DNA from: an uncultured Thermoleophilia bacterium
GTDB lineage: Bacteria; Actinomycetota; Thermoleophilia; UBA2241
Assembly: GCA_963747935.1 (NCBI GenBank)
Contig: CAVVGY010000009.1
Location: forward strand, 72,752 to 136,751
Direction: 5' to 3'
DNA length: 64,000 nt
The notes under the pieces: generated by a model
What the model was told of the DNA's origin: nothing
Seen by the model: only the letters and a program-made list of their open reading frames with translations
Database searches by the model: none
Position numbers and translations under genes: made by a program
Part shown: piece after piece, positions 6,088 through 56,034 of the stretch
Layout of the letters: the number at the start of each line of letters is the position of its first letter
Numbering within the stretch: position 1 is the first letter of the stretch

Positions 6088-6114
6088 GCGACCCTGCTGC
6101 TGGGCGGTACCGGT

Positions 6115-6675: not shown

Positions 6676-6784
6676 GCGGCGCTCCTTTCGTTGTTCCGTG
6701 CTATGTGCGTAGTGTACGCCACCGGGGAGAACCCACCAGGTGTGCGTGTGACACAGCCGCACGGCTTCACTATCCTAGGTTCCC

Positions 6785-7586: not shown

Positions 7587-7592
7587 CGGGGC

Positions 7593-40267: not shown

Positions 40268-40295
40268 CAACTCTCACTACGCTCTCGAGGCCCGT

Positions 40296-41666
40296 GTGAC
40301 GGACCCTGAGACCGATCTCGAAGGCAGCGCCACCGAAGGCCGTCCGCGGACCGTCGTGTTCGCGGTCGTCCCGAGCCGCCGCGGCGAGCCCGGCGAGGAC
40401 GAGGAACTGGTCGAGATCAAGGAGCTTCTGCGCTCGGCCGACATGGAGTGGGTCGCCGACGTCATCCAGCACCGCGATTCGCCCAATCCTCGCACCTACC
40501 TCGGCAAGGGCAAGATGGTCGAGCTCAAGGAGACCGTAGCGGAGCAGAAGGCCGCGGTGGCCGTCTGCGAGGACGATCTCTCCCCGGCGCAGGTCGCGTC
40601 CGTGCTCGACGCGGTCGACGCCGACGTACTCGACCGCACGGAGCTCATCCTCACCGTGTTCAGCAAGCACGCGCACTCGCTGGAGGGCACCATGCAGGTG
40701 CACCTCGCGCAGCTCGAGTACGAGCTCACGCGTATGCGCGGCAAGGGCCTCGTGATGAGCCGCCTCGGCGCCGGCGTGGACATGCGCGGCCCCGGCGAGA
40801 CCAAGATGGAGGTCGACCGCCGCGTCGTGCGCAAGCGCATCCAGACGCTCCGCGGCCGCATCGAGCAGATGGCGCGCACACGCAGGACCCAGCGTGCGCA
40901 CCGTATCCGCGCCGGCGTGCCGCTCATCGCCCTCGCCGGCTACACCAACGCCGGCAAGTCCACGCTGCTCAACGCGCTCACCGACGCCCACGTCTCGGTG
41001 CAGGACCGCCTGTTCGAGACGCTGGATCCGACTTCGCGCAGCTTCCGCTACCACGACCGCGACTACGTGCTCACCGACACCGTGGGCTTCATCCGCAAGC
41101 TGCCGCACCAGCTCGTCGACGCGTTCGCCAGCACCCTCGAGGAGACCACGCTGGCCGACGTCGTGCTCGTGGTGGCCGACGCCAGCCTCGAGGTCTCCGA
41201 GATCGCGGTGCGCGAGCAGACCGTTGCCGACGTGCTCGACAGGATCGGCAGCACGGCGCCTCGCATCATGGTCTTCAACAAGATCGACTGCCTCGATGAG
41301 CCCAAGCTCCAGCGTCTCAAGGCCCTCTATCCGGACGCGGAGTTCGTCGCCGCCGGCAAGGGCTACGGACTGGACCTGCTGCAGGCGCGCCTGGCGCGGT
41401 TCTTCGACCGCGCGCTGCGGCCCGTCAAGCTCCTGTTCCCGTACAGCGAGGCCGGCGAGATGCACCGGCTGCGCGGCATCGCCAGTGACGTGCACGAGGA
41501 GCACACGCCGGAGGGCGTGGTCTTCGAGGCCCGGCTGCCCGCGGCCGAGGCCGGGCGCTACGCACGCTACCGCGTCGAACCTGAGATCCCCAGCGACCTC
41601 CCGGACGAGTCCGGCACTCCCGACGACGAGGCTGCTCCGCCGGACGACGCCGACGTCGATGACTGA
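40296..41666 (+). CDS. hflX: GTPase HflX
   Basis: GTG 40296. LDRTELILTVFSKHAHSLEGTMQVHLAQLEY...IALAGYTNAGKSTLLNALT...DTVGFI...NKID. Confidence 0.9.
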   Translation: MTDPETDLEGSATEGRPRTVVFAVVPSRRGEPGEDEELVEIKELLRSADMEWVADVIQHRDSPNPRTYLGKGKMVELKETVAEQKAAVAVCEDDLSPAQVASVLDAVDADVLDRTELILTVFSKHAHSLEGTMQVHLAQLEYELTRMRGKGLVMSRLGAGVDMRGPGETKMEVDRRVVRKRIQTLRGRIEQMARTRRTQRAHRIRAGVPLIALAGYTNAGKSTLLNALTDAHVSVQDRLFETLDPTSRSFRYHDRDYVLTDTVGFIRKLPHQLVDAFASTLEETTLADVVLVVADASLEVSEIAVREQTVADVLDRIGSTAPRIMVFNKIDCLDEPKLQRLKALYPDAEFVAAGKGYGLDLLQARLARFFDRALRPVKLLFPYSEAGEMHRLRGIASDVHEEHTPEGVVFEARLPAAEAGRYARYRVEPEIPSDLPDESGTPDDEAAPPDDADVDD

Positions 41667-42117
41667 CGCCGGCCTGCCCGTCCCGGTCCGCCTGCTCACG
41701 CCCGCGGCGCGGCTCCCCGAGCGCGCCTACGAGCACGACGCCGCCTGGGACCTCTACGCGGCGGAGGAGGCCACGCTCCCGCCGCTGCATCGCGCAGTGG
41801 TCGGCACCGGCATCGCCCTTGGCCTCCCGCCGCACCTCGCCGCTTTCACGCTGCCACGCTCCGGACTCGCCGCCCGCCACGGCATCTCCATCGTGAACGC
41901 TCCGGGGCTCATCGACCCCGGCTACCGCGGCGAGGTCCGCATCATCCTGCTCAACACCGACGCAGAGGCCACGTTCGTCGTCGCCCCGGGCGACCGGATC
42001 GCCCAGTTGCTCTTCCTGCCCATGACCGATGTCCACCTGTTTACGGCGGAGACCCTCGACGACACCCACCGTGGTGAGAGAGGATTCGGCTCAAGCGGCA
42101 CAGGGGGGAGGACCTGA
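41659..42117 (+). CDS. dut: dUTP diphosphatase
   Basis: RLPERAYEHDAAWDLYA...PRSGLAARHGISIVNAPGLIDPGYRGEVRIILLN...RGERGFGSSG. Confidence 0.85.
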   Translation: MTDAGLPVPVRLLTPAARLPERAYEHDAAWDLYAAEEATLPPLHRAVVGTGIALGLPPHLAAFTLPRSGLAARHGISIVNAPGLIDPGYRGEVRIILLNTDAEATFVVAPGDRIAQLLFLPMTDVHLFTAETLDDTHRGERGFGSSGTGGRT

Positions 42118-42611
42118 TGGCCGACCAGCCCCAGGAGCCGAAGGCAGCCGTCGAGGAGACGGCTCCGGCAGACGAGAAGCCTACTATTCGGGTCGCAGGA
42201 CTGCTCATCCACGAAGGTAGTATCTTGATGGTAGAGCAGGGGAGAGGCGACGACCACTATTGGCTGCTGCCCGGCGGAGGCGTCCTGTTCGGCGAGACGC
42301 TCTCGGACGCGCTCAAGCGTGAACTCCGCGAGGAACTCGGCATGCGCGTCGGCGTCCAGCGGCTCGTGGCCATCGTCGAGTCGATCTCGCCGGATCCGGA
42401 GTACGCCAAGCACGTCGTGCACCTGGTGTTCGAGATCTCGGCGCCGACGGAGGACCTGCCGGAGCCACAGGAGGACAAAGTGCTCAACGCGCGGTTCCTC
42501 AGCGAGTTCCAGTTGCAGTCCGCGGACGTGCGCCCGCCGATCTCCGAGTTCCTGAGCGGCTGCGTGAGGGAGATGCCCTCGTCACCGCAGTACCTCGGGC
42601 GCCGCTGGTAG
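42117..42611 (+). CDS. NUDIX hydrolase
   Basis: Nudix box GGGVLFGETLSDALKRELREELG. The start abuts the dut stop. Confidence 0.8.
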   Translation: MADQPQEPKAAVEETAPADEKPTIRVAGLLIHEGSILMVEQGRGDDHYWLLPGGGVLFGETLSDALKRELREELGMRVGVQRLVAIVESISPDPEYAKHVVHLVFEISAPTEDLPEPQEDKVLNARFLSEFQLQSADVRPPISEFLSGCVREMPSSPQYLGRRW

Positions 42612-43294: not shown

Positions 43295-44323
43295 ATGCTG
43301 CGCAGACGCCCTAAAGCGTCCATTGCCGTTGCGATCACGGTGGCTGCCGCAGTCCTCGCGGCCCTTGCGGCAGCAGGCTGCAGCATCCGCCCCGCATCCG
43401 CCTCCACGCCGAAGGGGTACTCGTTCGCCGCCTACGGTGACATCAGGCCGGATTCGAGCTCGCCGACTGCTGACTACGGACCCGGCTTCCATCGCGTCAT
43501 GGCGAAGCTGGGCAGCCTGCCCCACGCCTTCGACGTGGTTGTGGGCGACATCATCCAGAACGCCTCCGGGGGCTACACGCTGGCCACGACCGAGCAGAAG
43601 TACAACGACATGCTGGCGCAGCTCGGACCGGACGCGCAGGCGCGGCATGTCTGGGTTGTGGGCAACCACGAGGGCGTGCAGACACAGACGGGGGCCGGCG
43701 CCTTCTCGGCCGTCCTCCACCCCGGTCCCCGCTGGTACACCTACAGCTACGGCGCGGGCACGGCCGATCAGCCCAGGGTGGTCGTGATCGTCCTCTCGAC
43801 CGAAGAGGCAGGCATGACGGGCCGCATCGGCTACTACGGCGTGGGCGACAGCCGCAACTCGGCCCAGGCTGACTTCCTGGTGCACGCACTGCAGACGCAC
43901 GCGGGCGACCAGCACACCTACCTCGTCGTCGCCATGCACCGGCCCATCACCGATCCAAAGCCGAACGAGTCCTTCGACGTCAACGGCGAGCGGCTTCCGC
44001 TGGAACACCTGTTCGCCAGGTACGGCGTCGACCTCGTGCTGAACGGCCACGTCCACGCGTACGTGCGGCACGTGATGCCCAACGGCCTGCCGTACATCAC
44101 CGTAGGGACCGGCGGGTCCCCGCTCTACAGCCCGCGCACCACCGTGACCACGTCGCCCGGCACGGACGCCCGCAGGATCTTCGGGCACTACGGTTTCACG
44201 CTGTTCCGGGTGGGCGGCGACGGCATGGCCGGCACCACCTTCAGCCTGGACACCTCGACCGGGAAGTGGCGCGTCGCCGACCGGTTCAGTGTGCCGCAGC
44301 AGCAGCCGCTGCCGGGCGGCTGA
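43295..44323 (+). CDS. secreted calcineurin-like metallophosphoesterase (lipobox-like signal peptide)
   Basis: MLRRRPKASIAVAITVAAAVLAALAAAGCS..., then YSFAAYGDIRPD, VVVGDIIQNA, VVGNHE, VVAMHRP and LNGHVHAY motifs. It is a paralogue of 54565..56034. Confidence 0.7.
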   Translation: MLRRRPKASIAVAITVAAAVLAALAAAGCSIRPASASTPKGYSFAAYGDIRPDSSSPTADYGPGFHRVMAKLGSLPHAFDVVVGDIIQNASGGYTLATTEQKYNDMLAQLGPDAQARHVWVVGNHEGVQTQTGAGAFSAVLHPGPRWYTYSYGAGTADQPRVVVIVLSTEEAGMTGRIGYYGVGDSRNSAQADFLVHALQTHAGDQHTYLVVAMHRPITDPKPNESFDVNGERLPLEHLFARYGVDLVLNGHVHAYVRHVMPNGLPYITVGTGGSPLYSPRTTVTTSPGTDARRIFGHYGFTLFRVGGDGMAGTTFSLDTSTGKWRVADRFSVPQQQPLPGG

Positions 44324-44432: not shown

Positions 44433-45764
44433 GTGAAAGGCAGCAGTTCTCCGAACGGCAGAAGCGAGTACCGGCAGGCCGTCATCCTTGTGGGAGGTGA
44501 GGGCAGCCGGCTGCGACCGATCACGTCGCGGGTGCCGAAGCCTGCCGCTCCCCTGCTGGGGCGGCCGTTCGTCAGCTACATCCTGGAGAACCTGGTCCAC
44601 CACGGAGTGGACCGCGTGGTCTTCTCCACCGGCTACCTCGCCGCCGCCATCGAGGCGGAGGTCGGCGACGGAGGCCGGTACGGCCTCGATGTAAGGTACG
44701 CCTTCGAGGACTCGCCCCTCGGGACCGCGGGAGCCATCAGGAACGCCGCGTCCGCGCTGGAGCCCGGCGGCTTCCTCGTGCTGAACGGGGACATCCTGAG
44801 CGACGCCGACCTGAGCGCCGTCGTCGCGTTCCACCGGGAGAGGCAGGCGGTCGCCACGCTGCTGACCACGGCGGTCGACGATCCCAGCCGCTACGGCCTG
44901 GTTGACGTTCGGGCGGACGGCCGGGTCGCGAGCTTCGTCGAGAAGCCCGGTGACGACTGGCCCGGTCCAGGCCTCATCAACGCCGGTGTGTACGTCCTCG
45001 AGCACGAGGCGCTCGACCTCATCCCACCTGGGCGCGAGTTCAGCATCGAGCGCGGCGTCTTCCCCTCACTGGCCGCCTCCGGCAGTCTCTACGCCTTCGT
45101 CGGCGCGGGCTACTGGCGCGACATCGGCACACCTCAGAGCTACCTGCAGGCACATTTCGACCTGCTGCGCGGACCGCTTGGGGTCGGGGCTCGCCGCGGG
45201 CTAGACGACGGCCACGACGGGGACGGGCAGGGACTCGTCTCCATCTCGCCGGATGCGCGCATCGATCCCGAGGCACAGCTCGTGCCTCCCGTGCACGTGG
45301 CCGGCGACGCCGTCATCAAGCGCGGCGCGACCGTCGGTCCGCTGACGGTGGTGGGCCGCGGCGCCCGGGTCGGCCGAGGAGCCCTGGTGGTCGCCTCCGT
45401 GCTCCAGGATGGCGTCAAGGTCGGTCGGGACGCGGTGGTGGACCACAGCGTCATCGTGCGGCGGGCCACCGTCGGCAGCGGATCGCACTTGAGCGATGTG
45501 GTCATCGGAGAGGCCTGCAACGTCGGCAAGGGAAACGTCCTCGCGAACGGGCTGCACCTCTTCCCTCAGGCGATCCTCCCGGACCGCAGCGTCAAGTTCC
45601 GTGACTCCGGAGCACCGGCGCTGGCCGCACCCGCCACCGCACTCGATGCAGCGGATCGGCAGGAGTCTTCCGGTGTGGACCGGCAGGTTTTGGCAGTGGC
45701 GGACCTGGAGGACCTTGCGGCCGCGTCTCCGGGAGAGCTGGGAGACCTCGAGCCGGCGGCCTGA
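44433..45764 (+). CDS. NDP-sugar pyrophosphorylase, GDP-mannose pyrophosphorylase-like (nucleotidyltransferase + left-handed beta-helix)
   Basis: GTG 44433. AVILVGGEGSRLRPITSRVPKPAAPLLGRPFVSYILENL...LGTAGAIRNA...NGDILSDADL...YWRDIGTPQSY, then hexapeptide-repeat-like V/G-rich repeats. Confidence 0.8.
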   Translation: MKGSSSPNGRSEYRQAVILVGGEGSRLRPITSRVPKPAAPLLGRPFVSYILENLVHHGVDRVVFSTGYLAAAIEAEVGDGGRYGLDVRYAFEDSPLGTAGAIRNAASALEPGGFLVLNGDILSDADLSAVVAFHRERQAVATLLTTAVDDPSRYGLVDVRADGRVASFVEKPGDDWPGPGLINAGVYVLEHEALDLIPPGREFSIERGVFPSLAASGSLYAFVGAGYWRDIGTPQSYLQAHFDLLRGPLGVGARRGLDDGHDGDGQGLVSISPDARIDPEAQLVPPVHVAGDAVIKRGATVGPLTVVGRGARVGRGALVVASVLQDGVKVGRDAVVDHSVIVRRATVGSGSHLSDVVIGEACNVGKGNVLANGLHLFPQAILPDRSVKFRDSGAPALAAPATALDAADRQESSGVDRQVLAVADLEDLAAASPGELGDLEPAA

Positions 45765-45812: not shown

Positions 45813-47231
45813 TCAGTAGCCGTACGTCACGACGTCGAACGACTGCCCGAGCGAGTTGACCGGCATCACGGTCACCTGGTTGGAGGTCACTGTGACCTTG
45901 AGGAAGCTGAAGACCTGCGCTGGCGAGGTCGGCGGCTTGGCGGCTCCTGTCGCGCTGCCCTTGTTCGATGAGTAGCTCCAGCCGATGCCGTAGGCGTCGA
46001 ACGGACTCGTCCCGTGCTGGCCGATGGGCTCGAGCTTCTCCCCTCCCGCCCCGGTGACGTAAGACACGAAGCTCTCCCCGGGTTGCTGGAAGTTGCGCTC
46101 ATAGATGTGGGCGTGGCCGTTGAAGACGAACTGCACGCCGTACTGCGTGAGAAGCGCCGCCAGGCTGTTCGGCCCATGGAGGTAGCTGTCGGTGGTCTCG
46201 CTCGAGTTGTCGGAGTACATGGGGAAGTGGAAGACCGCGAACTTCAGCGCGGCCGGGTGGGTGGCGAGGTCGTTGGCCAGCCACTGGTACTCGGCCGCGG
46301 TCGGCGCCCAGTGCGCGGCGTGGTCGTCCGAGTACAGAGTCCCCGTCCCGGTGTTCGTGTTCGCCCAGGCGGCCGTGAGCACGTAGTAGCGCGCAGTTCC
46401 GATGCTGAACGCGTACCACGCGGACGGGTAGTTCGCCGTACTGGTGCCCGGCACGCTGTAGGAATCCATCTGATAGCGCCCGGCCGACAGTACGGGCGCC
46501 GTGGGCTGTGGCCAGATGTTGAGGAACGTGCTGTTGAAGCCGTGGTTGCCCGGCGACCCGAACATCGACATGACGTCGCCGACGTTCTTGTAGAGCGACG
46601 GGCCGAAGACGTCCGAGATGTTGGTGCCCGTCTGGAACAGGTCGCCGTAGTTGGCCTGGTTGCCACTTGGATAGGCGACGTCGCCGGCGCTGAGGATGAA
46701 GGATGCGCCGCTCGAAGCGATCTGGCTCATGAGGTTGGCCTGGTCTGTCGTGCTGGTGCCGGCTCCCCAGTCGCCGAGCACCGCGAAGGAGTACGAGCCG
46801 GAGCTCGGCGGCGTGGTGAACGACGGAGAGGTATCCACGCCGAGCAGGTCCACCACCGGCGTGTTGAAGAACACGCGGTAGCTGTACACCGTACCGGGCT
46901 GCAACCCGGTGATCTTGGCCTTCCATTGGTACTCGGCCACCCCGTTGACCGAGATCGACGTCTTGCTGCCATTCGCCTTGTGCGCGGTGGCCGACTCGAT
47001 GCCGGCCTGGCCGTAGGTCGCATAGCCGGTGGTCTGGCTCCGGTCGGTGGCCCAGTTGATGGTCGCGTTGTACGTCGTGCCCGCGCTGACCACGTCGGTC
47101 AGATACGGATACCGCTTCAGCTGCGGCTGACTTGCCGCGCTGACGGTGGTCTGGGCGAGTGCGAATCCCGCAAGGGCCACAGCGACCAGGATCCCGGTCA
47201 GCCCGACTTGGACGGTCCAGCGTCGCATCAC
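45813..47231 (-). CDS. secreted purple-acid-phosphatase-like metallophosphoesterase
   Basis: Signal peptide, an N-terminal FN3-like region (YPYLTDV...YSYRV), then GDWG, SAGDVAY, GNHG, HFPMYS and NGHAHIYER motifs. Confidence 0.75.
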   Translation of the reverse strand: MMRRWTVQVGLTGILVAVALAGFALAQTTVSAASQPQLKRYPYLTDVVSAGTTYNATINWATDRSQTTGYATYGQAGIESATAHKANGSKTSISVNGVAEYQWKAKITGLQPGTVYSYRVFFNTPVVDLLGVDTSPSFTTPPSSGSYSFAVLGDWGAGTSTTDQANLMSQIASSGASFILSAGDVAYPSGNQANYGDLFQTGTNISDVFGPSLYKNVGDVMSMFGSPGNHGFNSTFLNIWPQPTAPVLSAGRYQMDSYSVPGTSTANYPSAWYAFSIGTARYYVLTAAWANTNTGTGTLYSDDHAAHWAPTAAEYQWLANDLATHPAALKFAVFHFPMYSDNSSETTDSYLHGPNSLAALLTQYGVQFVFNGHAHIYERNFQQPGESFVSYVTGAGGEKLEPIGQHGTSPFDAYGIGWSYSSNKGSATGAAKPPTSPAQVFSFLKVTVTSNQVTVMPVNSLGQSFDVVTYGY

Positions 47232-47469: not shown

Positions 47470-49146
47470 ATGAGAGCGGCGAAAGCTGCCGCGGAGAGCG
47501 CGACCATCACGCTCGGGCATTCCCCAGAAGAAGTCACGTCGGAAGCAGTCACGTCGGGACGCATGAGGACCGCGTTCGGATTCGCGGTCGTCGGAGCCAC
47601 CGGCATCTTCGTGAACCAAGTGGCACTGTGGCTGCAGGTCCGCTACCTGGGCGTCAACTACGCCGTCGCCGCGATCGTGGCGACGCAGGCCTCCACCACC
47701 TGGAACTTCTCGCTCAACGAGCTCCTCGTGTTCCGCGGGCGGGACGCAAAGCACGGACTGGCCGGTAGGTTCCTCGCCTTCTGGGCGGTCAACACCGGGA
47801 CGCTGCTCCTGCGTGTCCCCACGCTCGCCCTGCTCGTCTCGGTGCTGCGCATCCACTACCTCATCGCCAACCTCATCACGCTGATCGCGCTGTTCGTCGC
47901 GCGGTTCGTGGTCAGCGACCAGCTGATCTGGCGTCAGTCCGCGCCCCGGCAGGACGGCGCCGGTGCACCCGCTGGCACGGCCTCCGATGCGGGCGGGAGC
48001 TTCGCAACAGGCCAGGCTGGACGGAGCTGGAAACGCGGCTTCGCCCACACCTACGACATCCACGGGTTCGCTTCGATCGCATCAGACGTCCCGCTGCCGG
48101 AACTGAAGTACTTCCGCGACGCCTCCGTGGACGGCGGGGCCGACATCGAGATCCGCGTGGGCGACATCCTCAGTGGGCCGCGGCGCCGTATCGAGATCAC
48201 GGAGACCCCCGGCGTGATGTTGTACCAGGAGCACCTCGGCCGTCTGGGCGCCAACTTCCGCGTCGAGATCTTCGACAAGCTGAAAGTGACCGTCACCCCG
48301 CTCCTGGCCCACTCCCCACACGTCGTCTACACCAACATCGTGGAGGCGCTCCTGCGCTTCGTCCTCGCTTCTCGGGACTACGCCCTGCTCCACTCTGCCA
48401 CCGTGGTCATCGACGGCCAGGGCGTCATGCTGTCGGCGCACACCGACACAGGAAAGACCGCGACCATCCTGCGCATGCTGCGGGAGCACGGCGGCACCTT
48501 TCTCTCTGACGACATGACCATCGTGACGGGAGACGGCCCCGTCTACTCGTATCCCAAGCCACTGACGATCAGCCACCACACGCTGGCGGCCATCGACGGT
48601 GCGCTGCCCTCGCTGACGGAACGCACGCAGTTGGCCCTCAAGAGCAGGCTCCACTCGAAGGGCGGCCGGTCGACGGGGCTGCGGCTCTCGCGGATGAACC
48701 TGCCGATCATGTCCATGAACGCCGTGACGCAGGCGCTGGTCCCACCGCCCAAGTACCAGGTGTACGACCTGGTCCCGTGCGAGATCGGGGCCACGGCGAG
48801 GGTGCGCCACCTGGTGCTCATCGCCCGCGGTCCCCGCAAAGACGAGTCCGTGAACACCGACGAAGCCCTGGCGCAGCTCATCGAGAACACCGACGACGCC
48901 TACGGCTTCCCGCCGTTCCGCCAGCTCGCTCCCTTCGTCCAGCTCGGCGGCGAGACCTACCCGAAGCTGCGCAAGAAGGAGCGGGCCATCATCGAGAGCA
49001 TGCTGCTCAGCGGCGTGAGGGTGCGGCGCATGGTGCGCGACGACTTCTCATGGGCGGACGACATCCCCGCCTACGTGCGCAGCCACGAGGGCGTGCCTGA
49101 CCTGGCCGACTTCCGCCGCGAGGTCCCGGAACGCAGGGCGGCGTGA
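47470..49146 (+). CDS. fusion protein: N-terminal GtrA-like 4-TM domain + C-terminal HPr-kinase-like P-loop domain
   Basis: ATG 47470 lies 8 nt after GGGAGG. The GtrA-like part reads FGFAVVGATGIFVNQVALWL...WNFSLNELLVF...FVARFVVSDQLIW. The C-terminal part contains LLHSATVVIDGQGVMLSAHTDTGKTATILRMLREHGGTFLSDDMTIV, which is colinear with the HprK nucleotide-binding core (Walker A A-x4-GKT). Confidence 0.6.
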   Translation: MRAAKAAAESATITLGHSPEEVTSEAVTSGRMRTAFGFAVVGATGIFVNQVALWLQVRYLGVNYAVAAIVATQASTTWNFSLNELLVFRGRDAKHGLAGRFLAFWAVNTGTLLLRVPTLALLVSVLRIHYLIANLITLIALFVARFVVSDQLIWRQSAPRQDGAGAPAGTASDAGGSFATGQAGRSWKRGFAHTYDIHGFASIASDVPLPELKYFRDASVDGGADIEIRVGDILSGPRRRIEITETPGVMLYQEHLGRLGANFRVEIFDKLKVTVTPLLAHSPHVVYTNIVEALLRFVLASRDYALLHSATVVIDGQGVMLSAHTDTGKTATILRMLREHGGTFLSDDMTIVTGDGPVYSYPKPLTISHHTLAAIDGALPSLTERTQLALKSRLHSKGGRSTGLRLSRMNLPIMSMNAVTQALVPPPKYQVYDLVPCEIGATARVRHLVLIARGPRKDESVNTDEALAQLIENTDDAYGFPPFRQLAPFVQLGGETYPKLRKKERAIIESMLLSGVRVRRMVRDDFSWADDIPAYVRSHEGVPDLADFRREVPERRAA

Positions 49147-50799
49147 ATGAGGTTCTCGTCTGCTGACAGCACCAGCACTCTACCCGAGGCGCTGCGGCGC
49201 GAGGGCCGGCCCGAGCAGGCCCGCCACGCGGCAGAGGCCGCCCCGGCACCTCGAACGACGGGAGCCGGGGCGGGTATCGCCCTCAGCGTCACCGCCCGGC
49301 GTGTCCTGATCGCCGCCGCCGCCGGCACCGCGATCGCGGCGGCGCTCGGCTTGCGACTGTGGCACCTCAACGCGCTCGGGTTCAACAGCGACGAGGCGGC
49401 CTACGCCGGCCAGGCGGCCTCGATCGCCGGAGACCAGCACCTGTCCGGGCTGTTCCCGGTGTTCCGCGCGCATCCTCTCCTCTTTCAGCTCCTGGTCTCG
49501 ATCATCTACCGGGTGCACGTCGGCGAGCTGGGGCCCCGCCTGCTGGCGGTCGGATTCGGGGTCGCGACGGTGGTCGCGGGGTACGCGCTGGGCGCGCGCA
49601 TCTACGGGCGCACGGCCGGCCTCCTGACGGCCCTGTTGCTCGCCGTGATGCCGTACCTGGTCATCGTCAACCGCCAGGCGCTGCTGGACGGACCGATGGT
49701 GTTCTTCTCAGTCATCGCTCTGTGGCTCCTGGCGAAGTTCGTCGCCGAAGAGCGCCCTGCGTTCCTCTACGCCGCCGGCGGGGCCCTGGGGCTCGCGTTC
49801 CTGACCAAGGAGACGGCCATCCTGCTGGTGCCGGCCGTCTACGCGTTCCTCGCCGTGACGCCCAGCGTGCGAGTCAGGCTCAAGGACCTCGCGCTGTCGC
49901 TGGGGTGCTTTGCTCTGGTCGCTCTCCCCTATCCCCTGTCGCTGGCGATAGCCGGAGGGTCGAAGACGGGGCAGCACTTCCTGGTGTGGCAGCTCTTCCG
50001 TCCGGCCAACCACGCCTGGGACTTCTACCTCTCCGTGGTCCCGTCCGCGATGGGCATCCCTCTCGTCGTGCTCGCCGTGGCGGCTCTCGTGATGGTCGCC
50101 CTGGGGCGGACGTGGAGCTGGAGAGAGTCGCTGCTGGTGAGCTGGATCGTCGTCCCGGCGTTCTTCTTCGAACTGTGGCCGGTGAAGGGCTTCCAGTACT
50201 TGCTCCCGGCCGCCGCGCCGGTGGCGGTCATGGCGGCCGGGCTGCTCTCGGGGGCCGCGGCGAGGGGCTTGAAGGGCCTCGGCGACTGGCGGTTCTGGCA
50301 GGCCATGAGGGCCGGCATCGCCGTCGCAGTCATCGTGTCCCTCGGGGTCGTCAGCTGGATCGCCGTCACGACCTCGGGCTCGACCTCGTTCCTCGCCGGG
50401 ACGGGAGGCGTGCCCGGCGGCCGCGAGGCCGGGAACTGGATCCGGACGCACACCCCGCTGGGCGCCGAGTTCTTCTCCATCGGGCCGTCGATGGCCAACA
50501 TCCTGGAGTTCACAGGACAGCGCCGGGTCCTGGCGCTCTCGGTGAGCCCGAACCCCCTGCACCGCAACCCGGCCTACACGCCGGTCCCCAACCCGGACCT
50601 CCTCGTGCGCGGCAGCGAGGTCCAGTACATCGTCTGGGACTCCTACTCGGCCGCGCGCACGACGTACTTCACCCAGCGCCTCCTGACCTTGGTGAGGCGC
50701 TACCACGGGAGGCCCGTCCACGTGCAGACCGTGCCGGTGGAGGCAGGTGGCAGGTCTGTGCAGCGGCCCGTCATCATCATCTACGAGGTGCGGCCATGA
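49147..50799 (+). CDS. GT-C fold glycosyltransferase (PMT_2 / ArnT-like, family 39/83-type)
   Basis: 550 aa, polytopic. It has the first-loop DE motif (LGFNSDEAAYAG), ...RLLAVGFGVATVVAGYALGARIYGRTAGLLTALLLAVMPYLV..., and a soluble C-terminal domain. The ATG abuts the stop of the upstream gene. Confidence 0.8.
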   Translation: MRFSSADSTSTLPEALRREGRPEQARHAAEAAPAPRTTGAGAGIALSVTARRVLIAAAAGTAIAAALGLRLWHLNALGFNSDEAAYAGQAASIAGDQHLSGLFPVFRAHPLLFQLLVSIIYRVHVGELGPRLLAVGFGVATVVAGYALGARIYGRTAGLLTALLLAVMPYLVIVNRQALLDGPMVFFSVIALWLLAKFVAEERPAFLYAAGGALGLAFLTKETAILLVPAVYAFLAVTPSVRVRLKDLALSLGCFALVALPYPLSLAIAGGSKTGQHFLVWQLFRPANHAWDFYLSVVPSAMGIPLVVLAVAALVMVALGRTWSWRESLLVSWIVVPAFFFELWPVKGFQYLLPAAAPVAVMAAGLLSGAAARGLKGLGDWRFWQAMRAGIAVAVIVSLGVVSWIAVTTSGSTSFLAGTGGVPGGREAGNWIRTHTPLGAEFFSIGPSMANILEFTGQRRVLALSVSPNPLHRNPAYTPVPNPDLLVRGSEVQYIVWDSYSAARTTYFTQRLLTLVRRYHGRPVHVQTVPVEAGGRSVQRPVIIIYEVRP

Positions 50800-52172
50800 A
50801 CCGCATCCGCCTCGTCGTCCGCACGGCGCTCGTCATCATCGCGGCCGGCGTCCTGTGTCTGGCTGCCGCGGCGTCGCCCGCGCTCTCGTCCGGCACGGCC
50901 TCTCACGCCCCCCGAACGCCCATCAAGCACTTCGTGGTCGTCATGCAGGAGAACCACACCTTCGACAACTACTTCGGCACGTACCCCGGAGCCAACGGCA
51001 TCCCTGCGGGGACCCGCATGCCCTTGGACACTGCGTCCACGTCGACCGGCTTCGCCACTCCCTTCCACATCGGCGGCTCCGCGGCCACCGACCTCAACCA
51101 CAGCATCGCGTCCGCCGAGATCGCCTTCCACGGCGGCCGTATGGACGGGTTCTCGGCCGCACAGGACGTCGGCGCTCCGGCGCGACAGGTGATGGGCTAC
51201 TACAACGGGAGCGACTTGCCCCTCTACTGGAACATGGCCGACCAGTACGTGCTGTTCGACCGCTTCTTCTCCTCGGCGATGGGAGGCAGCCTCATCAACC
51301 ACTACTACTGGGTAGCCGGGGGCATCGGTGGCGTCCAGGGAAAGACGCTGGCTCGCCCCCTGGACGTGCCGACGATCTTCGACCGGCTGCAGAAGGCCGG
51401 CGTGTCGTGGAAGTTCTACGTGCAGAACTACGACCCGAAGATCAACTACAAGACGGTCCCGCCGACGACCGTCGCGAACTCAGGCTCCCAAGTGGTCTGG
51501 GCGCCCCTGCTCGACATCCCTCGCTTCGTGAACAACCGTCGGTTGGCGTCTCACATCGTCGACCTGAAGCAGTACTTCACCGACCTCCACAACGGGACCC
51601 TTCCGGCCGTCTCGTACATCGTGCCGTCCGGTGCGAGCGAGCATCCGCCGGGGAGCGTCCTGGCAGGCCAGCAGTACGTCAGCGGCCTCGTGAACTCCCT
51701 GATCGCGAGCAGTTCGTGGAGCAGTTCCGCCTTCATGCTGGCCTACGACGACTGGGGCGGGTGGTATGACCACGTCGTGCCGCCGCGACGCGACGCGAAC
51801 GGCGACGGATTCCGCGTGCCCGCCCTGCTGGTCAGCCCCTACGCCCGCCGCCACTTCGTCGACCACACGACGCTCGACTTCACCTCGATGCTCCAATTCA
51901 TCGAGAAGAACTGGAACCTGCGCCCGCTCACGCGCCTCGACGCGACGAGCCAGAGCATCATGGGCGCGTTCGACTTCAAGCAGTCCCCGAGACCGGCGGC
52001 CTTCATCTCGATGTCGCGGTCGGAGGGTCCCGCCGTTCGGACGACCGCGATGCGGGATATCGCGCTCTACTCCCTCTACGGCCTCGGCGCGCTCCTTGCC
52101 GTCGGCTTCATCGTCGTGGCCCGGGCCGCCAGTCGTCGCCCGCTTCGCCGCCCGGACAGGAGCGCAGGCTGA
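50796..52172 (+). CDS. phosphoesterase family protein (phospholipase C / AcpA-type acid phosphatase) with C-terminal TM anchor
   Basis: ATGA overlap with the GT-C gene. Signal peptide, then IKHFVVVMQENHTFDNYFGTYPGANG, ...LAYDDWGGWYDHVVPP...GFRVPALLVSPYARR..., and a terminal hydrophobic helix. Confidence 0.8.
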   Translation: MNRIRLVVRTALVIIAAGVLCLAAAASPALSSGTASHAPRTPIKHFVVVMQENHTFDNYFGTYPGANGIPAGTRMPLDTASTSTGFATPFHIGGSAATDLNHSIASAEIAFHGGRMDGFSAAQDVGAPARQVMGYYNGSDLPLYWNMADQYVLFDRFFSSAMGGSLINHYYWVAGGIGGVQGKTLARPLDVPTIFDRLQKAGVSWKFYVQNYDPKINYKTVPPTTVANSGSQVVWAPLLDIPRFVNNRRLASHIVDLKQYFTDLHNGTLPAVSYIVPSGASEHPPGSVLAGQQYVSGLVNSLIASSSWSSSAFMLAYDDWGGWYDHVVPPRRDANGDGFRVPALLVSPYARRHFVDHTTLDFTSMLQFIEKNWNLRPLTRLDATSQSIMGAFDFKQSPRPAAFISMSRSEGPAVRTTAMRDIALYSLYGLGALLAVGFIVVARAASRRPLRRPDRSAG

Positions 52173-53297
52173 TGGCGCGCCGTCCGCTACTCCTGCGCCG
52201 CGTCGGGCCTTTCGCGCTCGGGATCCTGGCGACGCTGCTCCTGCTGGCCGCGTGGCCGGCACCCTCGCGAGCGGCGCCCGCGGCGACCCTGCAACTGCAG
52301 ACCGTGCCTCGACTTCCTGGTGTGGGTCTGATGCTCGACGGCGTCACCCACCGGACGGACTCGTCGGGTTCGCTCCGGATCCGCACCTTCGCAGGCACGC
52401 ACAGCCTCAAGCTTCTCCCGACCACAGCCCTCCCGGGCGGCAGGATCGCACAGCCCGACGGCTGGCTCGGGCAGCGCGGAGTGCCGCAACAGATCACGCT
52501 GCCGTCCGGCACGACGGTGGAACACGTCTCGTTCATCGTGTCGCGGCCGGTGACGGTGACGGTCACCGACTATTCGGGCCGGCAGATCCCGCAGGGGCAA
52601 GATCGACCGGGTGACCCTCGTCAACAGCCTGGGGCAGCAATTCGTCCTCAGGTCTGGGTCGCCGAGCATCGTGCTCCCCCTCAACGGGGTGATCCACCCG
52701 CGCACGGGCTACGTGTCGGTGCCCCTCCGGTACTCCGTCCGCTCGGTCCTCGTCCGGGGCGGCGAGGTGGTGCACCGCAGCAGCCAGTCCTTTGCCGCCA
52801 GCGCTCCGGAGCCTTGGGTCATCAAGGGCCTGATCTTCCCGCTGCGCATCCAGGTGCGGGATGCGCTGTTCGGCTTCGCGGTCGGACGTTCTGTCGTGCT
52901 CGCACCGCGGTTCGGCACGAAGAGGACGCTGGAGCTCGGCTCGGGACACGACGTGCGCGTCGAAGGCCTGGCCCGAGGGACGTACGACGTCACCGCGCAC
53001 GGCCCCGGCCTCGGCCTCACCTCGGTCACGACGCTCTCGCGACCCCAGGAGGCCAAAGTCCTGCTCTTCTCCTGGGTCGACGTCGGCGTGGTGGGGGCGT
53101 TCGCCCTGGTGTTCCTCGTGGGGCTTCCTCTCGTCGGCGGACGCCTCGCGCGTCGCCCCGGCTCCCGGATGGTGCGGTGGCGGGAACGGCGGGTCCGGGA
53201 GGCGGCGCCCGCGGACGCAGGCGCGCGGGCGCAGGCAGCGCCTCCTCTGGACGCCCGGCGCTCAGCGGACACCCCTCCCCAAAGAAGGGCGTCATGA
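52172..53297 (+). pseudogene. hypothetical secreted, C-terminally anchored beta-sandwich-repeat protein; frame broken once at the GGGG run 52594-52597
   Basis: Signal peptide (LLLLAAWPAPSRAAPA), then ..VTVTVTDYSGRQIPQG in one frame. It continues as KIDRVTLVNSLGQQFVLRSG...RGTYDVTAHGPG...VDVGVVGAFALVFLVGLPLV (TM) in ORF 52611..53297. Removing one G restores a single ORF. Confidence 0.5.
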
Positions 53298-54532
53298 GCC
53301 GCGGGGGGCGTCACCGCCGCGGCCGGCCGCTCTCTCTGGCCACGGGCCTGCTCGTGGTCACGGCCCTCGCGGCCCTCGTCCCGGCGCTGCTCGTCTCCAG
53401 CGCGAAGGCGTCCCCGAGCGGCGGCGCCTCGCCACGGTCCTCCCTCGGCATCACCGGCACCGCGGCACAGCCGATCCCCGTGCTGGCCTACTACTACATC
53501 TGGTACAACCCGAGCTCGTGGAACAGGGCGAAGATGGACTACTCCGCCCTTGGCCGCTACTCCTCGAGTGACGTGGCGGTGATGCGGCAGCAGGTGGAAC
53601 TGGCCAAGAAGGCCGGCATCAGCGGCTTCCTCGTCAGCTGGAAGGACACGCCGGTGCTCGACGCCCGGCTCGCGGCGCTGGTCAAGGTGTGCGCCGCCGC
53701 GCACTTCAAGCTCGGCATCGTCTTCGAGGGCCTCGACTTCCACAGGGCCCCGATCCCGATGGCAGAGGTCCAGAACAGCTTCAGCTACTTCACCCAGCAG
53801 TACGCCGGCTCGCCGGTGTTCGACTGGTCCGGCAAGCCGATCGTCATCTGGGCGGGCACGTGGGGCTACACGAGCAGCCAGCTCGCGTCCATCACCAACG
53901 CCTACAGGCCCCGGTTGACGATCCTGGCGTCAGAGAAGCAGGTCAGCTCGTACGACGCCATCGCCCCGCTCTTCGACGGCAACGCGTACTACTGGTCGTC
54001 GGTCGACCCGCTCCACACGCCGAGCTATCAGAGCAAGATGGATGCCTTCTCCGCCGCGGTCCACAGCCACGGCGGCCTCTGGATCGCGCCGGCCGCACCG
54101 GGCTTCGATGCGACCCTGCTCGGCGGCACACGGGTCATCCCTCGCCGTGGCGGCCAGACGCTGCGCCTCGAGATGAACGCTGCGCTGGCCTCCTCGCCCG
54201 ACGCCATCGGCCTGATCAGCTGGAACGAGTTCAGCGAGAACTCCGCGGTGGAGCCCAGCCGCATGTACGGCTCCTCCACCCTGAAGACGCTCGCCGCCAT
54301 CCAGCACGCGCATCCCGGGGCCATCCCGAACTTCGACTCGAGCAGCCCGGCAGGGTTCCACGCGGGCGTGAGCCCCTTCGTCATCCTGGGCGCGGTGGTC
54401 TTCATCTTCGCCGGCAGCGCGCTGGCGCTGGCCCGCAGGGAGGGACGCCGGCGCCGAATGACGGCCGGCGCCGGACAGACGCGCGCCGGCCCTGCCCCGA
54501 AGATCCGGAGTGCGTCCCGGAGACCGAGGTAG
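53294..54532 (+). CDS. GH99-like (endo-alpha-mannosidase family-like) protein with signal peptide and C-terminal TM anchor
   Basis: ATGA overlap with the upstream gene. VLAYYYIWYNPSSW...GRYSSSDVAVMRQQVELAKKAGISGFLVSWKD...LISWNEFSENSAVEP is colinear with the GH99 pattern FYYxWY...G.YSS.D..V...H......IGV...SW...NEWHEGT.IE. Confidence 0.55.
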   Translation: MSRGGRHRRGRPLSLATGLLVVTALAALVPALLVSSAKASPSGGASPRSSLGITGTAAQPIPVLAYYYIWYNPSSWNRAKMDYSALGRYSSSDVAVMRQQVELAKKAGISGFLVSWKDTPVLDARLAALVKVCAAAHFKLGIVFEGLDFHRAPIPMAEVQNSFSYFTQQYAGSPVFDWSGKPIVIWAGTWGYTSSQLASITNAYRPRLTILASEKQVSSYDAIAPLFDGNAYYWSSVDPLHTPSYQSKMDAFSAAVHSHGGLWIAPAAPGFDATLLGGTRVIPRRGGQTLRLEMNAALASSPDAIGLISWNEFSENSAVEPSRMYGSSTLKTLAAIQHAHPGAIPNFDSSSPAGFHAGVSPFVILGAVVFIFAGSALALARREGRRRRMTAGAGQTRAGPAPKIRSASRRPR

Positions 54533-54564: not shown

Positions 54565-56034
54565 TCACGGTGTGGGTGCGAACACGCGAGCCTCGACGAT
54601 CGAAGCGCGTCCGCTGCCCGACCTCAGCCCCTTGACGAGCACACGGATGTAGCGAGCCGACCGGCCTGGCGTCCACTTCTTCCACGCGTGCCCGTCGTTC
54701 GAGCGCTGCACCTGCCACGCATAGGTGCGCGGGGCGCCGGTGGGATCGAAGAACCGGACCTTCACCCGGCTCACGGTCCGCACGCTGCCGAGATCGACTC
54801 TCCACCATTGGGGGAAGGTCGCCCTCGCTGCCGTCCACCGCGTCGCGGTGAGGCCGTCGTTCGCGTATCTCCCGGCGCGCCGGCGGCTCGATGCGCTCGT
54901 CGGGAGCCCTTGGGAGACCAGCACTGACGTCGGGCTCGGACTGGGCGATGGGGTCACCGTCGGTGTCGTCGTGGGCGTCGGGGACGGCGTGACCCCCTCC
55001 GGCGCCTGCTGTGCCACGTCGAAGCTGTCGCCGACTCGCCACACCCAGTCGGTCTCCGAGGTCACGAAGGTATCCGCCTTCAGGTGCCCGGCCGTCGTGA
55101 CCTGGAACCTGGTGAACCCGAACTGCTCGTGCGTGGAGTCAACGGAGCCGATGCGCGACGCGTCGGCGCCCGGCGACGTGTGCGCAGCGTACATCTCATC
55201 TTTGGCCTCGGCTCCACCCATGCCCTGCACGAGGTAGGTCGTGCCGTCAGGCATCAGGTGGCGCACGTAGGCGTGCACGTGGCCCGCCAGGACGAGATCC
55301 ACGCCGTATTTGGCGAAGAGTTGCTCCAGCGCCTGGCGCTCGGCCGGGTGCGTGTCGTAGCCCTCGCCGGGCTTCGGATCGGCGATCGGGTGGTGCATGT
55401 TGACGACCAGGAAGGTGTTGGAGTCGTGCGCGTGAGCGCGGAGTTGCGACACCAGCCAATCGCCCTGCGCGCTGTTGGATGCGCTCCCCTCACCGGCGTA
55501 GCCGACGGTGCCCAGGTGCCCCGTCTCATAGGTCGACAGGTTGAAGACGATGATGCGCGGGTCTGACGCGGTGCCCGCGCCGTGAGTGGACACGTCGTAG
55601 TGAGCGGGATGGATGTTGCTCTCCCAGCCCGCGGCGCCCGCCGCCGACGTCCCTACGGCTTCGTGGTTGCCGACGGCGTAGCTCTTGGGGACGGCACGAG
55701 TGGCGCCCAACGCCGTGAAGAAGTCGGCGTACTTGGCGTCGACCGTCGCCGTCGTGTCGGTCGAGGCGACGTTGACGAGGTCGCCGACGACGACCTCGAA
55801 GGCGTGCGGCTCGGCGGCCATCTTGTCACGCACGTGCTGCCAGCCGGCCGAGTAGGAGGCGTGCAGTGCCTGACTGCCGGGGCGGATGTCGCCCCATGCG
55901 ATGAACGAGTACGCCACCGGGTCGCTCGCGGCCCCCGCTCTTGAAGGCGGGCGATGAAGAGCCCACGCGCCGAACGCGGCGACCAGGAGCGTGAGAAGTG
56001 TGACGAGGGTGAGGGTGAGACGGGTGTGGGACAA
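54565..56034 (-). CDS. secreted metallophosphoesterase with C-terminal F5/8 type C (discoidin)-like domain
   Basis: YSFIAWGDIRPG, VVVGDLVNVA, VGNHE, VVNMHHP and LAGHVHAY motifs, making it a paralogue of 43295..44323. A Thr/Pro/Ser linker leads to ..YANDGLTATRWTAARATFPQWWRVDLG..YIRV. Confidence 0.75.
   Translation of the reverse strand: MSHTRLTLTLVTLLTLLVAAFGAWALHRPPSRAGAASDPVAYSFIAWGDIRPGSQALHASYSAGWQHVRDKMAAEPHAFEVVVGDLVNVASTDTTATVDAKYADFFTALGATRAVPKSYAVGNHEAVGTSAAGAAGWESNIHPAHYDVSTHGAGTASDPRIIVFNLSTYETGHLGTVGYAGEGSASNSAQGDWLVSQLRAHAHDSNTFLVVNMHHPIADPKPGEGYDTHPAERQALEQLFAKYGVDLVLAGHVHAYVRHLMPDGTTYLVQGMGGAEAKDEMYAAHTSPGADASRIGSVDSTHEQFGFTRFQVTTAGHLKADTFVTSETDWVWRVGDSFDVAQQAPEGVTPSPTPTTTPTVTPSPSPSPTSVLVSQGLPTSASSRRRAGRYANDGLTATRWTAARATFPQWWRVDLGSVRTVSRVKVRFFDPTGAPRTYAWQVQRSNDGHAWKKWTPGRSARYIRVLVKGLRSGSGRASIVEARVFAPTP

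Follow-up and report, generated by a model that had tools for sequence, protein, structure and literature searches.

What does a nucleotide-binding domain of the HPr kinase kind do when it is joined to a membrane module of the kind that handles sugars on polyprenyl lipids? The question is raised by a gene at positions 47470 to 49146 of a 64,000-nucleotide stretch of contig CAVVGY010000009.1, from an uncultured Thermoleophilia bacterium (assembly GCA_963747935.1); this whole stretch is called the window below, and positions are counted from its first letter. An earlier note on this DNA had singled the gene out as an unusual fusion of a GtrA-like membrane module to an HprK-like P-loop domain. 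We find that it belongs to a large conserved family in which a four-helix module of the dolichyl-phosphate mannose synthase (DPMS) type is followed by a soluble domain with the predicted fold of HprK and phosphoenolpyruvate carboxykinase (PEPCK), hereafter the kinase-type domain, and that the gene sits in a cassette with a GT-C glycosyltransferase and secreted phosphoesterases. Fusion and cassette together point to an undescribed phosphorylation step in the making of cell-surface sugars.

A single gene, intact across independent assemblies

The open reading frame (ORF) encodes 558 residues between an ATG at 47470 and a TGA at 49144–49146, with a Shine-Dalgarno-like GGGAGG 7–8 nt 5' of the start codon (Table 1). 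Its stop codon is followed directly by the ATG of the GT-C gene at 49147 (TGAATG), confirming the abutment of the two genes described previously. More than 110 homologues with 48–91% identity, from independent assemblies that include complete genomes of cultured strains, are collinear with the entire protein, and an identical 558-residue protein is on record in another data set (P0001). A full-length AlphaFold2 (AF2) model built on an alignment of 112 homologues has a predicted local distance difference test (pLDDT) score of 85.3.

An apparent fusion of this kind could be an artefact, in which a small GtrA gene and the gene of a soluble protein had been fused by a sequencing indel in the assembly. 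The window does hold at least one frameshift relative to orthologues, in the downstream gene X, so that its sequence quality is imperfect, and it also holds a seemingly split aminotransferase gene. The single-ORF architecture nevertheless recurs in all of the collinear homologues and in the identical record, and an indel joining two genes has a negligible probability; comparison with the homologues rules it out. The ORF is itself intact and the fusion is real.

A membrane module of the DPMS type

Residues 38–154 match the Pfam family PF04138 (GtrA_DPMS_TM) over profile positions 2–117 of 117 (E = 3.6e-19; 69.5 bits against a cut-off of 26.1), and the AF2 model places four long helices at residues 25–60, 64–87, 97–125 and 130–153, in keeping with the four-helix GtrA-family module that had been proposed at residues ~30–165. 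The nearest solved structure is the transmembrane (TM) domain of Pyrococcus furiosus DPMS (PfDPMS), which is recovered by Foldseek (5mlz; 31% identity, root-mean-square deviation 1.5 Å), by a search of the family profile against PDB sequences (E = 5.9e-16) and by pairwise BLASTP (34% identity, E = 2e-14).

The crystallised complex of PfDPMS holds flipped dolichyl-phosphate mannose (Dol-P-Man) inside this TM domain, where Asn248, Asn277 and Arg341 make up a polar pocket and Phe338 a gate; the position of Arg341 is Arg in Thermococcales and Asn elsewhere, and classical GtrA proteins do not have these pocket motifs (PMC12992685, published in 2026). The four PfDPMS residues Asn248, Asn277, Phe338 and Arg341 align to N49 (47614), N79 (47704), F142 (47893) and R145 (47902) of the target, of which N79, F142 and R145 are invariant among the 112 homologues and N49 is at least 90% conserved. 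Because all four pocket residues are kept, the module is better described as a type-III DPMS TM domain than as a generic GtrA protein, and in this respect the original family label needs revision. The size of the protein is likewise not that of a classical GtrA protein, which stands alone at ~120–140 residues: the target has 558 and its relatives 500–1300. An R115-x-P117 motif in TM3 is invariant across the target family and missing from PfDPMS. Lysine and arginine cluster before TM1, in the TM2–TM3 loop and after TM4, and by this positive-inside count both termini are expected to be cytoplasmic (N-in/C-in).

A distant branch of the HprK/PEPCK fold

The membrane module is connected to the soluble domain by an unconserved linker that falls below a pLDDT of 50 over residues 163–187 and varies in length among homologues. 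The soluble domain itself (~365 residues) is laid out as an N-terminal beta subdomain, a P-loop core, a helical insert at residues 382–423 and a C-terminal subdomain, contains no hydrophobic segment, and is modelled on its own with a pLDDT of 90.3 and a predicted template-modelling score of 0.89. All 50 PDB matches listed by Foldseek for this model are ATP-dependent PEPCK or HprK/P, and the full-length model agrees. Matches to ATP-dependent PEPCK reach E = 1.4e-5 over up to 427 aligned columns (query-normalised template-modelling score 0.33–0.51) and those to HprK/P reach E = 7e-5 (target-normalised score up to 0.57); the PEPCK matches cover 300–430 columns and include the N-terminal substrate-binding subdomain. 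The resemblance to the nucleotide-binding segment of HprK that had been read by eye in a ~370-residue domain is borne out by these comparisons, whose 50 listed matches include no unrelated fold.

Sequence profiles are far less decisive. Searched with the single protein, hidden Markov models (HMMs) of the HprK-related families all score far below their curated cut-offs: HprK_rel_A (E = 1.7e-5, 24.1 bits) and HprK_rel_B (E = 2e-4, 20.5 bits) against 200, hpr-ser TIGR00679 (E = 0.006, 15.9 bits) against 240, Pfam Hpr_kinase_C PF07475 (E = 0.12, 12.4 bits) against 33.3, and ScmC (11.6 bits) against 125. The weak signal is nonetheless family-wide, HprK_rel_A matching 76, HprK_rel_B 70, hpr-ser 46 and ScmC 26 of 78 members. 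Precomputed Pfam annotation labels the domain PF27840 'ScmC', with matches that are weak or faint wherever their strength is stated. Against PDB chains, a profile search returned the DPMS TM domain and no HprK match, while a search with the single C-terminal domain returned nothing significant, HprK appearing at E = 0.95 amid dehydrogenase noise. As the sequence-only PDB searches are empty, the fold assignment rests on structure prediction together with the weak family-wide HMM matches. Given the sub-cut-off scores and the weak or faint precomputed ScmC matches, we place the soluble domain on a distant, separate branch of the HprK/PEPCK fold, outside every named family.

The catalytic core runs from a strand at residues 317–323 through the P-loop 323-AHTDTGKT-330 and a helix at 329–340 to a second strand at 343–346, with D347 and D348 at its tip. 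The HprK/PEPCK group is distinguished among P-loop proteins by this same order, beta1–P-loop–alpha1–beta2–Asp, in which beta2 ends in the Walker-B Asp (PMC7758060). About 80 residues of the soluble domain are invariant in the 112-homologue alignment, including H308, T325, D326, G328, K329, T330, D347 and D348, and several motifs are specific to the family: YPKPLTIS, HSKxGR, NxPIM, PPPK(Y) and NTxDAYxFPPF (NTDDAYGFPPF). Of 148 distant representatives, 109 retain AxTDTGKT, and the remainder include fragments that do not contain the region. Such a conservation pattern reads as that of an active enzyme.

HprK/P and PEPCK, the only structural neighbours among the 50 listed, share with the target the P-loop arrangement, the Walker-B Asp at the beta2 tip and an upstream conserved His. 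They differ in having only ~10% identity to the target domain, with HMM scores far below cut-off, and in their Walker A motif, which is GxSGxGKS or GLSGTGKT where the target family has AxTDTGKT; the target family is, moreover, membrane-tethered and carries its large family-specific motifs.

A widespread family with recurrent domain fusions

Far from being unusual, the fusion defines a large conserved family. Searched against 1.84 billion representatives clustered at 50% identity, the C-terminal domain matches 1300 clusters at E < 1e-3, 375 at E < 1e-10 and 165 at E < 1e-30, and when one genome per species was scanned, 327 species proved to encode a relative. Carriers among the matches listed are mainly Actinomycetota and Chloroflexota, the former including Thermoleophilia, Micromonospora, Actinoplanes, Dactylosporangium, Streptosporangiaceae, Jatrophihabitans, Oryzobacter and a few Streptomyces. 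The closest relative is in an uncultured Thermoleophilia metagenome-assembled genome (MAG), at 81–87% identity; the nearest public relatives are 'MFD' MAGs. Source annotations name these proteins 'GtrA family protein', 'putative flippase GtrA' or 'dolichol-phosphate mannosyltransferase', so that current database names overlook the fused domain.

Most members carry a further enzyme at their N-terminus. In 65 of 90 related loci (loci and proteins are identified below by L and P numbers) a GT2 domain precedes the membrane module in the same frame, and in 5 more, four of them from Chloroflexota, a GT2 is encoded by a separate adjoining gene. Its consensus contains DADLQHPP, TRY and GFKILLE, the motifs of polyprenyl-phosphate glycosyltransferases of the DPM1/GtrB/PfDPMS type. 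The earlier note had observed that the locus has no GtrB-type glycosyltransferase and had drawn a functional hint from this. The observation stands, as neither tblastn nor a 68-domain GT2 profile run on the ORFs of all six frames found a GtrB/DPM1-type GT2 in the 64 kb, but since most related loci carry a fused GT2 the absence is no clue to function, and the GT2-less form of the window is a minority state.

The kinase-type domain is also found joined to the glycosyltransferase that follows it. P0129 (1310 residues) combines GT2, TM module, kinase-type domain and GT-C in a single polypeptide; P0140, P0151 and P0218 combine the TM module, kinase-type domain and GT-C; P0149 has the kinase-type domain and GT-C; and in P0188 (L090:3115-4800) the order is permuted, with the kinase-type domain ahead of the GtrA/DPMS TM module. 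Stand-alone kinase-type domains of 350–380 residues also occur. These fusions tie the domain functionally to the GT2, the TM module and the GT-C, and they are compatible only with a cytoplasmic kinase-type domain. Together with the N-in/C-in topology, the GT2-, TM- and GT-C-fused and permuted relatives lead us to predict that the domain faces the cytoplasm, a siting that is further supported by the availability of ATP inside the cell only.

A conserved operon with secreted phosphoesterases

Partners were counted only in loci with sufficient flanking sequence, those other than the GT2 in the 59 loci with at least 7.9 kb downstream. A GT2 lies upstream in 62 of 78 loci. A GT-C of the PMT_2 family is present downstream in 55 of the 59; a PF04185 phosphoesterase is found in 48, a GH99/GH71-like hydrolase in 44 and a purple-acid-phosphatase-like enzyme in 30, and either a PF04185 or a purple-acid-phosphatase-like enzyme in 57. 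A nucleotidyltransferase is adjacent in 3 of the first 84 related loci. Gene junctions overlap or abut (TGAATG, ATGA, TGATG). The kinase-type domain belongs to a conserved operon with the order (GT2)-TM-kinase, GT-C, PF04185, X and GH99-like hydrolase, often with further secreted phosphoesterases.

Some loci depart from this order. In L089, which has neither GT2 nor TM module, the kinase-type domain stands alone, and the genes after it still encode a TPR protein, GT-C, PF04185, an unknown protein and the GH99-like hydrolase. At L018:7200-16843 (Actinoplanes sp. CA-030573) the genes behind the fused GT2-TM-kinase gene encode a processive-type GT2 (Glyco_tranf_2_3), GT-C, a GH5 protein of the cellulase family and a metallophosphoesterase with a CBM96 carbohydrate-binding module (CBM), so that the GH5, processive GT2 and CBM96-metallophosphoesterase replace PF04185, X and the GH99-like hydrolase; this variant suggests that the module can serve different exopolysaccharide systems. 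In the metagenomic contig L100 (L100:1-1721) the end of the kinase-type domain is followed directly by PF04185, with no intervening GT-C.

The linkage also holds in reverse. Among 80 metagenomic loci retrieved with the PF04185 profile and ranked by identity to the PF04185 protein of the window, those at 44% identity or more sit behind a GT-C, and behind the kinase-type domain in all 8 of the contigs that reach far enough (8/8), while those at 42% identity or less never accompany the kinase-type domain and have a GT-C nearby in only three cases. The exception is L096, in which a cassette-type PF04185 (51% identity) has no GT-C within 2.3 kb upstream. The strongest context signal of the family, which the earlier note had missed, is this linkage to a membrane-anchored, extracytoplasmic PF04185 and other secreted phosphoesterases.

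In the window (Table 1), the start of the PF04185 gene overlaps the GT-C stop codon (ATGA), and NCBIfam scores its product equally as a phosphatidylcholine-type phospholipase C (PC-PLC) and as an acid phosphatase. By hydropathy, the PF04185, X and GH99-like proteins each have a signal-like N-terminus, a C-terminal TM helix and an Arg-rich tail, anchors that would hold them on the outward side of the membrane beside the GT-C. Orthologues of X (L007, L001, L008) match by tblastn in frame 2 up to ~52591–52600 and in frame 3 from ~52593–52602; the frame switch near 52592–52602 is either an assembly indel or a pseudogene, and the 786-residue ORF listed at 52172–54532 is consequently a chimera of the X N-terminus, an out-of-frame stretch and the GH99-like gene. 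The X orthologues match no Pfam family apart from a weak CarboxypepD_reg match. The nucleotidyltransferase upstream best matches mycobacterial mannose-1-phosphate guanylyltransferase (man1P_GTase_Rv, E = 1e-94, below the curated cut-off), and a nucleotidyltransferase also lies upstream in L001 and L087. Four secreted phosphoesterases lie within 13 kb: the PF04185 protein, the purple-acid-phosphatase-like enzyme and two metallophosphoesterases. The latter two bracket the cassette, and their N-terminal regions look alike by eye; the one with an F5/8-type-C domain has functional analogues in the CBM96-metallophosphoesterases of L018 and L085.

Table 1. Features of the target gene and of the surrounding cassette, in window positions.
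Feature	Positions	Strand	Basis
Whole gene: DPMS-type/GtrA four-helix module, linker and HprK/PEPCK-fold P-loop domain	47470..49146	+	ORF, translation, homologues, AF2
Membrane module (residues 36-154), four TM helices, predicted N-in/C-in	47575..47931	+	Pfam PF04138, BLASTP, Foldseek, positive-inside count
Disordered low-complexity linker, residues 155-190	47932..48039	+	pLDDT, conservation
Soluble domain of predicted HprK/PEPCK fold, residues 191-553	48040..49128	+	AF2, Foldseek, conservation
Catalytic core, residues 306-349: LLH308SA, beta1, P-loop, alpha1, beta2, D347-D348	48385..48516	+	Conservation, AF2 secondary structure
GT-C glycosyltransferase (PMT_2), ~10 or more TM segments	49147..50799	+	Pfam PMT_2 E=8.9e-21, hydropathy
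PF04185 phosphoesterase (phospholipase C / acid phosphatase family)	50796..52172	+	Pfam E=6.7e-80
Conserved extracytoplasmic protein X	52172..53297	+	tblastn of orthologues, hydropathy
GH99/GH71-like TIM-barrel hydrolase	53294..54532	+	Pfam GH71 4.9e-9, GH99 1.1e-8
Secreted purple-acid-phosphatase-like metallophosphoesterase, divergent	45813..47231	-	Pfam Metallophos and Pur_ac_phosph_N; signal-like N-terminus
Sugar-1-phosphate nucleotidyltransferase with LbH domain, start codon uncertain	44433..45764	+	Pfam NTP_transferase 2.2e-49
Secreted metallophosphoesterase with F5/8-type-C (NedA-like) carbohydrate-binding domain	54565..56034	-	Pfam; signal-like N-terminus
Metallophosphoesterase with lipoprotein-type signal (…AAAGC)	43295..44323	+	Pfam Metallophos; N-terminal sequence

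A candidate phosphorylation step on a lipid-linked sugar

From these observations we consider it likely that the kinase-type domain is catalytically active and acts as a phosphotransferase within this pathway of lipid-linked sugars. That its substrate is specifically the lipid-linked sugar is a tentative suggestion, and it is possible, though we would not press the point, that the protein serves as the phosphotransferase subunit, anchored in the membrane and facing the cytoplasm, of a conserved machinery that draws on a polyprenyl-phosphate-sugar to glycosylate an extracellular target. The suggestion of the earlier note, that a membrane-tethered domain of kinase or phosphorylase type might act on a lipid-linked sugar, is still the reading we prefer, and neither of the outcomes named there as refuting it, a fold unlike HprK/PEPCK or an ORF joined by an indel, was borne out. 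The sugar carried on the polyprenyl phosphate would probably be mannose; the upstream gene resembles mannose-1-phosphate guanylyltransferases.

On this proposal, the domain would draw on ATP (or pyrophosphate, PPi) to place a phosphate on a hydroxyl of the polyprenyl-phosphate-sugar while this is on the inner side of the membrane, as a tailoring or commitment step in the slot that ArnD holds between ArnC and ArnE/F–ArnT. The DPMS-type TM module would then present or flip the phosphorylated lipid-sugar, the GT-C would transfer the sugar outside, and the co-encoded phosphoesterases (PF04185, purple-acid-phosphatase-like and CBM-linked) would remove or remodel phosphate on the surface glycan. As the GT2 is absent from the cassette of the window, a housekeeping synthase would have to supply the lipid-sugar of this lineage, which would leave phosphorylation as the one cytoplasmic step that the cassette encodes.

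We favour the lipid-linked sugar among possible substrates because the domain is soluble and peripheral, which suits an exposed head group over a buried polyprenol hydroxyl; because it persists without a GT2, as a step that commits a housekeeping lipid-sugar would; and because secreted phosphoesterases with carbohydrate-binding modules (F5/8-type-C here, CBM96 in L018 and L085) imply a phosphorylated glycan. The Arn pathway (ArnC, ArnD, ArnE/F, ArnT) offers a precedent for tailoring a lipid-sugar between the GT2 and the flippase and GT-C, in that ArnD, at the cytoplasmic face, tailors the lipid-linked sugar before it is flipped (PMC12690121). More speculatively, the invariant Arg of TM3 could fit a more anionic head group.

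Several considerations weigh against this assignment. The characterised relatives of the fold act on protein or peptide serines or on a small carboxylate (PEPCK), never on a glycolipid, and the lasso-peptide kinases of HprK fold phosphorylate peptide serines (PMC8498205). The similarity is remote (~10% identity, template-modelling scores of 0.4–0.5, no sequence-level PDB match), and a disordered linker of 25–40 residues implies a domain that is tethered and not rigidly docked. A head group with an extra phosphate would be harder to flip, and the role of the secreted phosphoesterases could instead be to scavenge phosphate. The loci that we counted share a phylogeny, so that their counts are not independent events and co-occurrence overstates independent support. 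In its fullest form, which we regard as doubtful, the proposal would make this the first HprK/PEPCK-fold kinase to act on a glycolipid: its phosphate would be a commitment mark for the DPMS-type flippase module and the GT-C, PF04185 would strip that phosphate outside, ATP would make export directional, and the system, widespread in soil Actinomycetota and Chloroflexota, would build a hitherto undescribed and possibly transiently phosphorylated surface glycan.

Other roles for the kinase-type domain

The same evidence can be read with a protein as the substrate. A regulatory protein kinase/phosphorylase, sensing ATP, PPi or inorganic phosphate in the manner of HprK/P, could phosphorylate or dephosphorylate a serine of the GT2, the GT-C or another protein and so switch glycosylation, for instance according to phosphate supply. 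The best HMM matches are indeed to protein and peptide kinases (HprK_rel_A/B, hpr-ser, ScmC). Homologues of this fold that have been characterised act on a Ser, in HPr or in the precursors of lasso peptides, and the cassette is rich in secreted phosphoesterases of types that belong to phosphate-starvation regulons in other bacteria. We nevertheless think a regulatory role unlikely. The domain persists without a GT2 in the window, and without both GT2 and TM module in L089, so the GT2 is not a universal target; no HPr-like, peptide-precursor, PqqD or radical-SAM partner appears in the annotated contexts of the loci examined; and the PEPCK matches extend over the N-terminal substrate-binding subdomain. 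Nor do PHO-box-like repeats exceed chance: a search for such paired direct repeats gave 1 match against 2.6 expected, and this does not lie near the locus, which leaves the phosphate-regulon idea unsupported. Alternatively, the substrate could be the carrier lipid. PF04185 might cleave the lipid–phosphate bond outside, either of spent polyprenyl phosphate or, in the style of a phospholipase C, of a lipid-linked product, after which the polyprenol would flip back and be re-phosphorylated for the GT2. Such recycling would account for the tightness of the linkage between kinase-type domain and PF04185 in both directions, including the direct adjacency in L100, for a membrane-anchored PF04185 protein that scores equally as phospholipase C and acid phosphatase, and for the tethering of the domain to lipid-binding membrane modules. 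Known polyprenol kinases (DgkA-type, dolichol kinase) are integral membrane enzymes, however, while the target domain is soluble and has no hydrophobic segment; general recycling of polyprenyl phosphate should need no cassette-specific enzyme, and the phosphoesterases with carbohydrate-binding modules would be left unexplained, all of which makes this reading quite unlikely.

Two further readings dispense with phosphorylation of a lipid or protein. ATP binding or hydrolysis could drive or gate translocation of the lipid-sugar by the TM module without any substrate being phosphorylated, a role with which the invariant P-loop and Walker-B-type Asp and the covalent link to a module of the type crystallised with flipped Dol-P-Man are consistent. 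We consider it improbable, since the HprK/PEPCK topology group consists of phosphotransferases and not motors, a long disordered linker transmits force poorly, the kinase-type domain of L089 stands alone in a locus with no TM module, and proteins that translocate lipid-linked sugars work without ATP (PMC12992685). Finally, the domain could be a soluble-sugar kinase whose product, a sugar phosphate such as an anomeric sugar-1-phosphate, is destined for the neighbouring nucleotidyltransferase and hence for the GT2, in a membrane-tethered salvage metabolon. A PEPCK-like two-lobed architecture suits small substrates, and the window, like L001 and L087, has a gene resembling mannose-1-phosphate guanylyltransferases immediately upstream, yet the rarity of an adjacent nucleotidyltransferase across the related loci, where GT-C and PF04185 are the conserved partners instead, and the lack of any reason for a soluble substrate to require membrane tethering or a TM–GT-C fusion, make this very improbable.

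Comparison with known glycosylation and kinase systems

Phosphorylation of a lipid-linked sugar by the kinase-type domain would fit into a pathway whose general logic is familiar. In GtrB/GtrA/GT-C systems a GT2 loads polyprenyl phosphate with a sugar inside, a four-helix module deals with the resulting lipid-sugar, and transfer on the outside is the task of a GT-C. The target family probably shares this logic; of the three components the window has a GtrA-type module and an abutting GT-C with no GT2, and the family as a whole usually has both GT2 (62/78) and GT-C (55/59). The Arn pathway also has an extra enzyme, which is a deformylase/deacetylase, whereas that of the target family has a P-loop phosphotransferase fold and is fused to the GtrA-type module. 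The target cassette differs from both systems in adding an anchored PF04185, an anchored X and a GH99-like hydrolase. To our knowledge, the GtrB/GtrA/GT-C, Arn and DPMS/PMT pathways need no nucleotide-dependent step after lipid loading.

PfDPMS (PDB 5MLZ, 5MM1, 9EP0) has a homologous TM domain and shares its pocket and gating residues with the target. Most relatives of the target also share its N-terminal GT2, with the motifs DADLQHPP, (S/T)RY and KIL, although this domain (DADxQHPP, SRY, KIL in PfDPMS) is missing from the target ORF. PfDPMS in turn lacks the ~365-residue HprK/PEPCK-fold domain that the target family adds after TM4, and it is archaeal where the target family is bacterial (Actinomycetota, Chloroflexota).

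Among HprK-related proteins, the best sequence-profile matches are to HprK_rel_A/B, ScmC (PF27840) and lasso kinases such as the paeninodin kinase, at ~20–25 bits against cut-offs of 125–200. Their peptide cassettes contain precursor-peptide, PqqD, radical-SAM and lasso genes, none of which is nearby in the target loci examined, where glycosylation and phosphoesterase partners are found instead. No HPr or phosphotransferase-system gene is present among the annotated neighbours, in which no dedicated search for ptsH or crh was made. That a kinase in the cytoplasm can act on a polyprenyl-linked glycan has a precedent, in concept, in WbdD-type kinases, which phosphorylate the end of lipid-linked O-antigen in the cytoplasm; unlike the target, WbdD has an unrelated, eukaryotic-like kinase fold, works in a pathway with an ABC transporter and lacks a GT-C or GtrA partner. 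In the literature searched we found no paper pairing GtrA with HPr kinase, only general reviews for GtrA, GT-C and polyprenol with a kinase domain, and only unrelated acronyms for ScmC and SynChlorMet. The pathway logic, of GtrB/GtrA/GT-C or Arn-like type, and the DPMS-type module are known; what is new here is the integrated P-loop phosphotransferase-type domain and its pairing with an outside phosphoesterase.

Other features of the window

Upstream of the cassette, overlapping ORFs at 39103–40008 and 39971–40267 (+) resemble two halves of one class-I/II aminotransferase, which suggests another frameshift near 39970–40000 and, with gene X, hints at an indel-prone assembly. An HflX-type GTPase followed by a NUDIX hydrolase occupies 40005–42611 (+), a MiaB/RimO-type radical-SAM methylthiotransferase (UPF0004, Radical_SAM and TRAM domains) 26976–28373 (+), and a protein with a YkuD L,D-transpeptidase domain 5638–7773 (+). 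Of ten long ORFs scanned elsewhere in the window, the eight on the minus strand, which lie between 8 and 36 kb, match no Pfam family; as the DNA is GC-rich, they may be spurious antisense ORFs. A promoter and terminator scan of 42.6–56.4 kb gave nothing above shuffled expectation, and tRNA and Rfam scans of the window found none.

Implications

A P-loop phosphotransferase-type domain is joined to a DPMS-type module, sometimes together with a GT2 and a GT-C, across hundreds of species. Should the kinase-type domain act on the lipid-linked sugar or its carrier, the pathway would gain an additional enzymatic step, and the HprK/PEPCK fold a class of substrate new to it. As there are cultivable carriers, including Micromonospora, Actinoplanes, Dactylosporangium, Oryzobacter and some Streptomyces, the proposal is directly testable, and if it is true, soil Actinomycetota would possess a widespread and so far uncharacterised cell-envelope glycan system.

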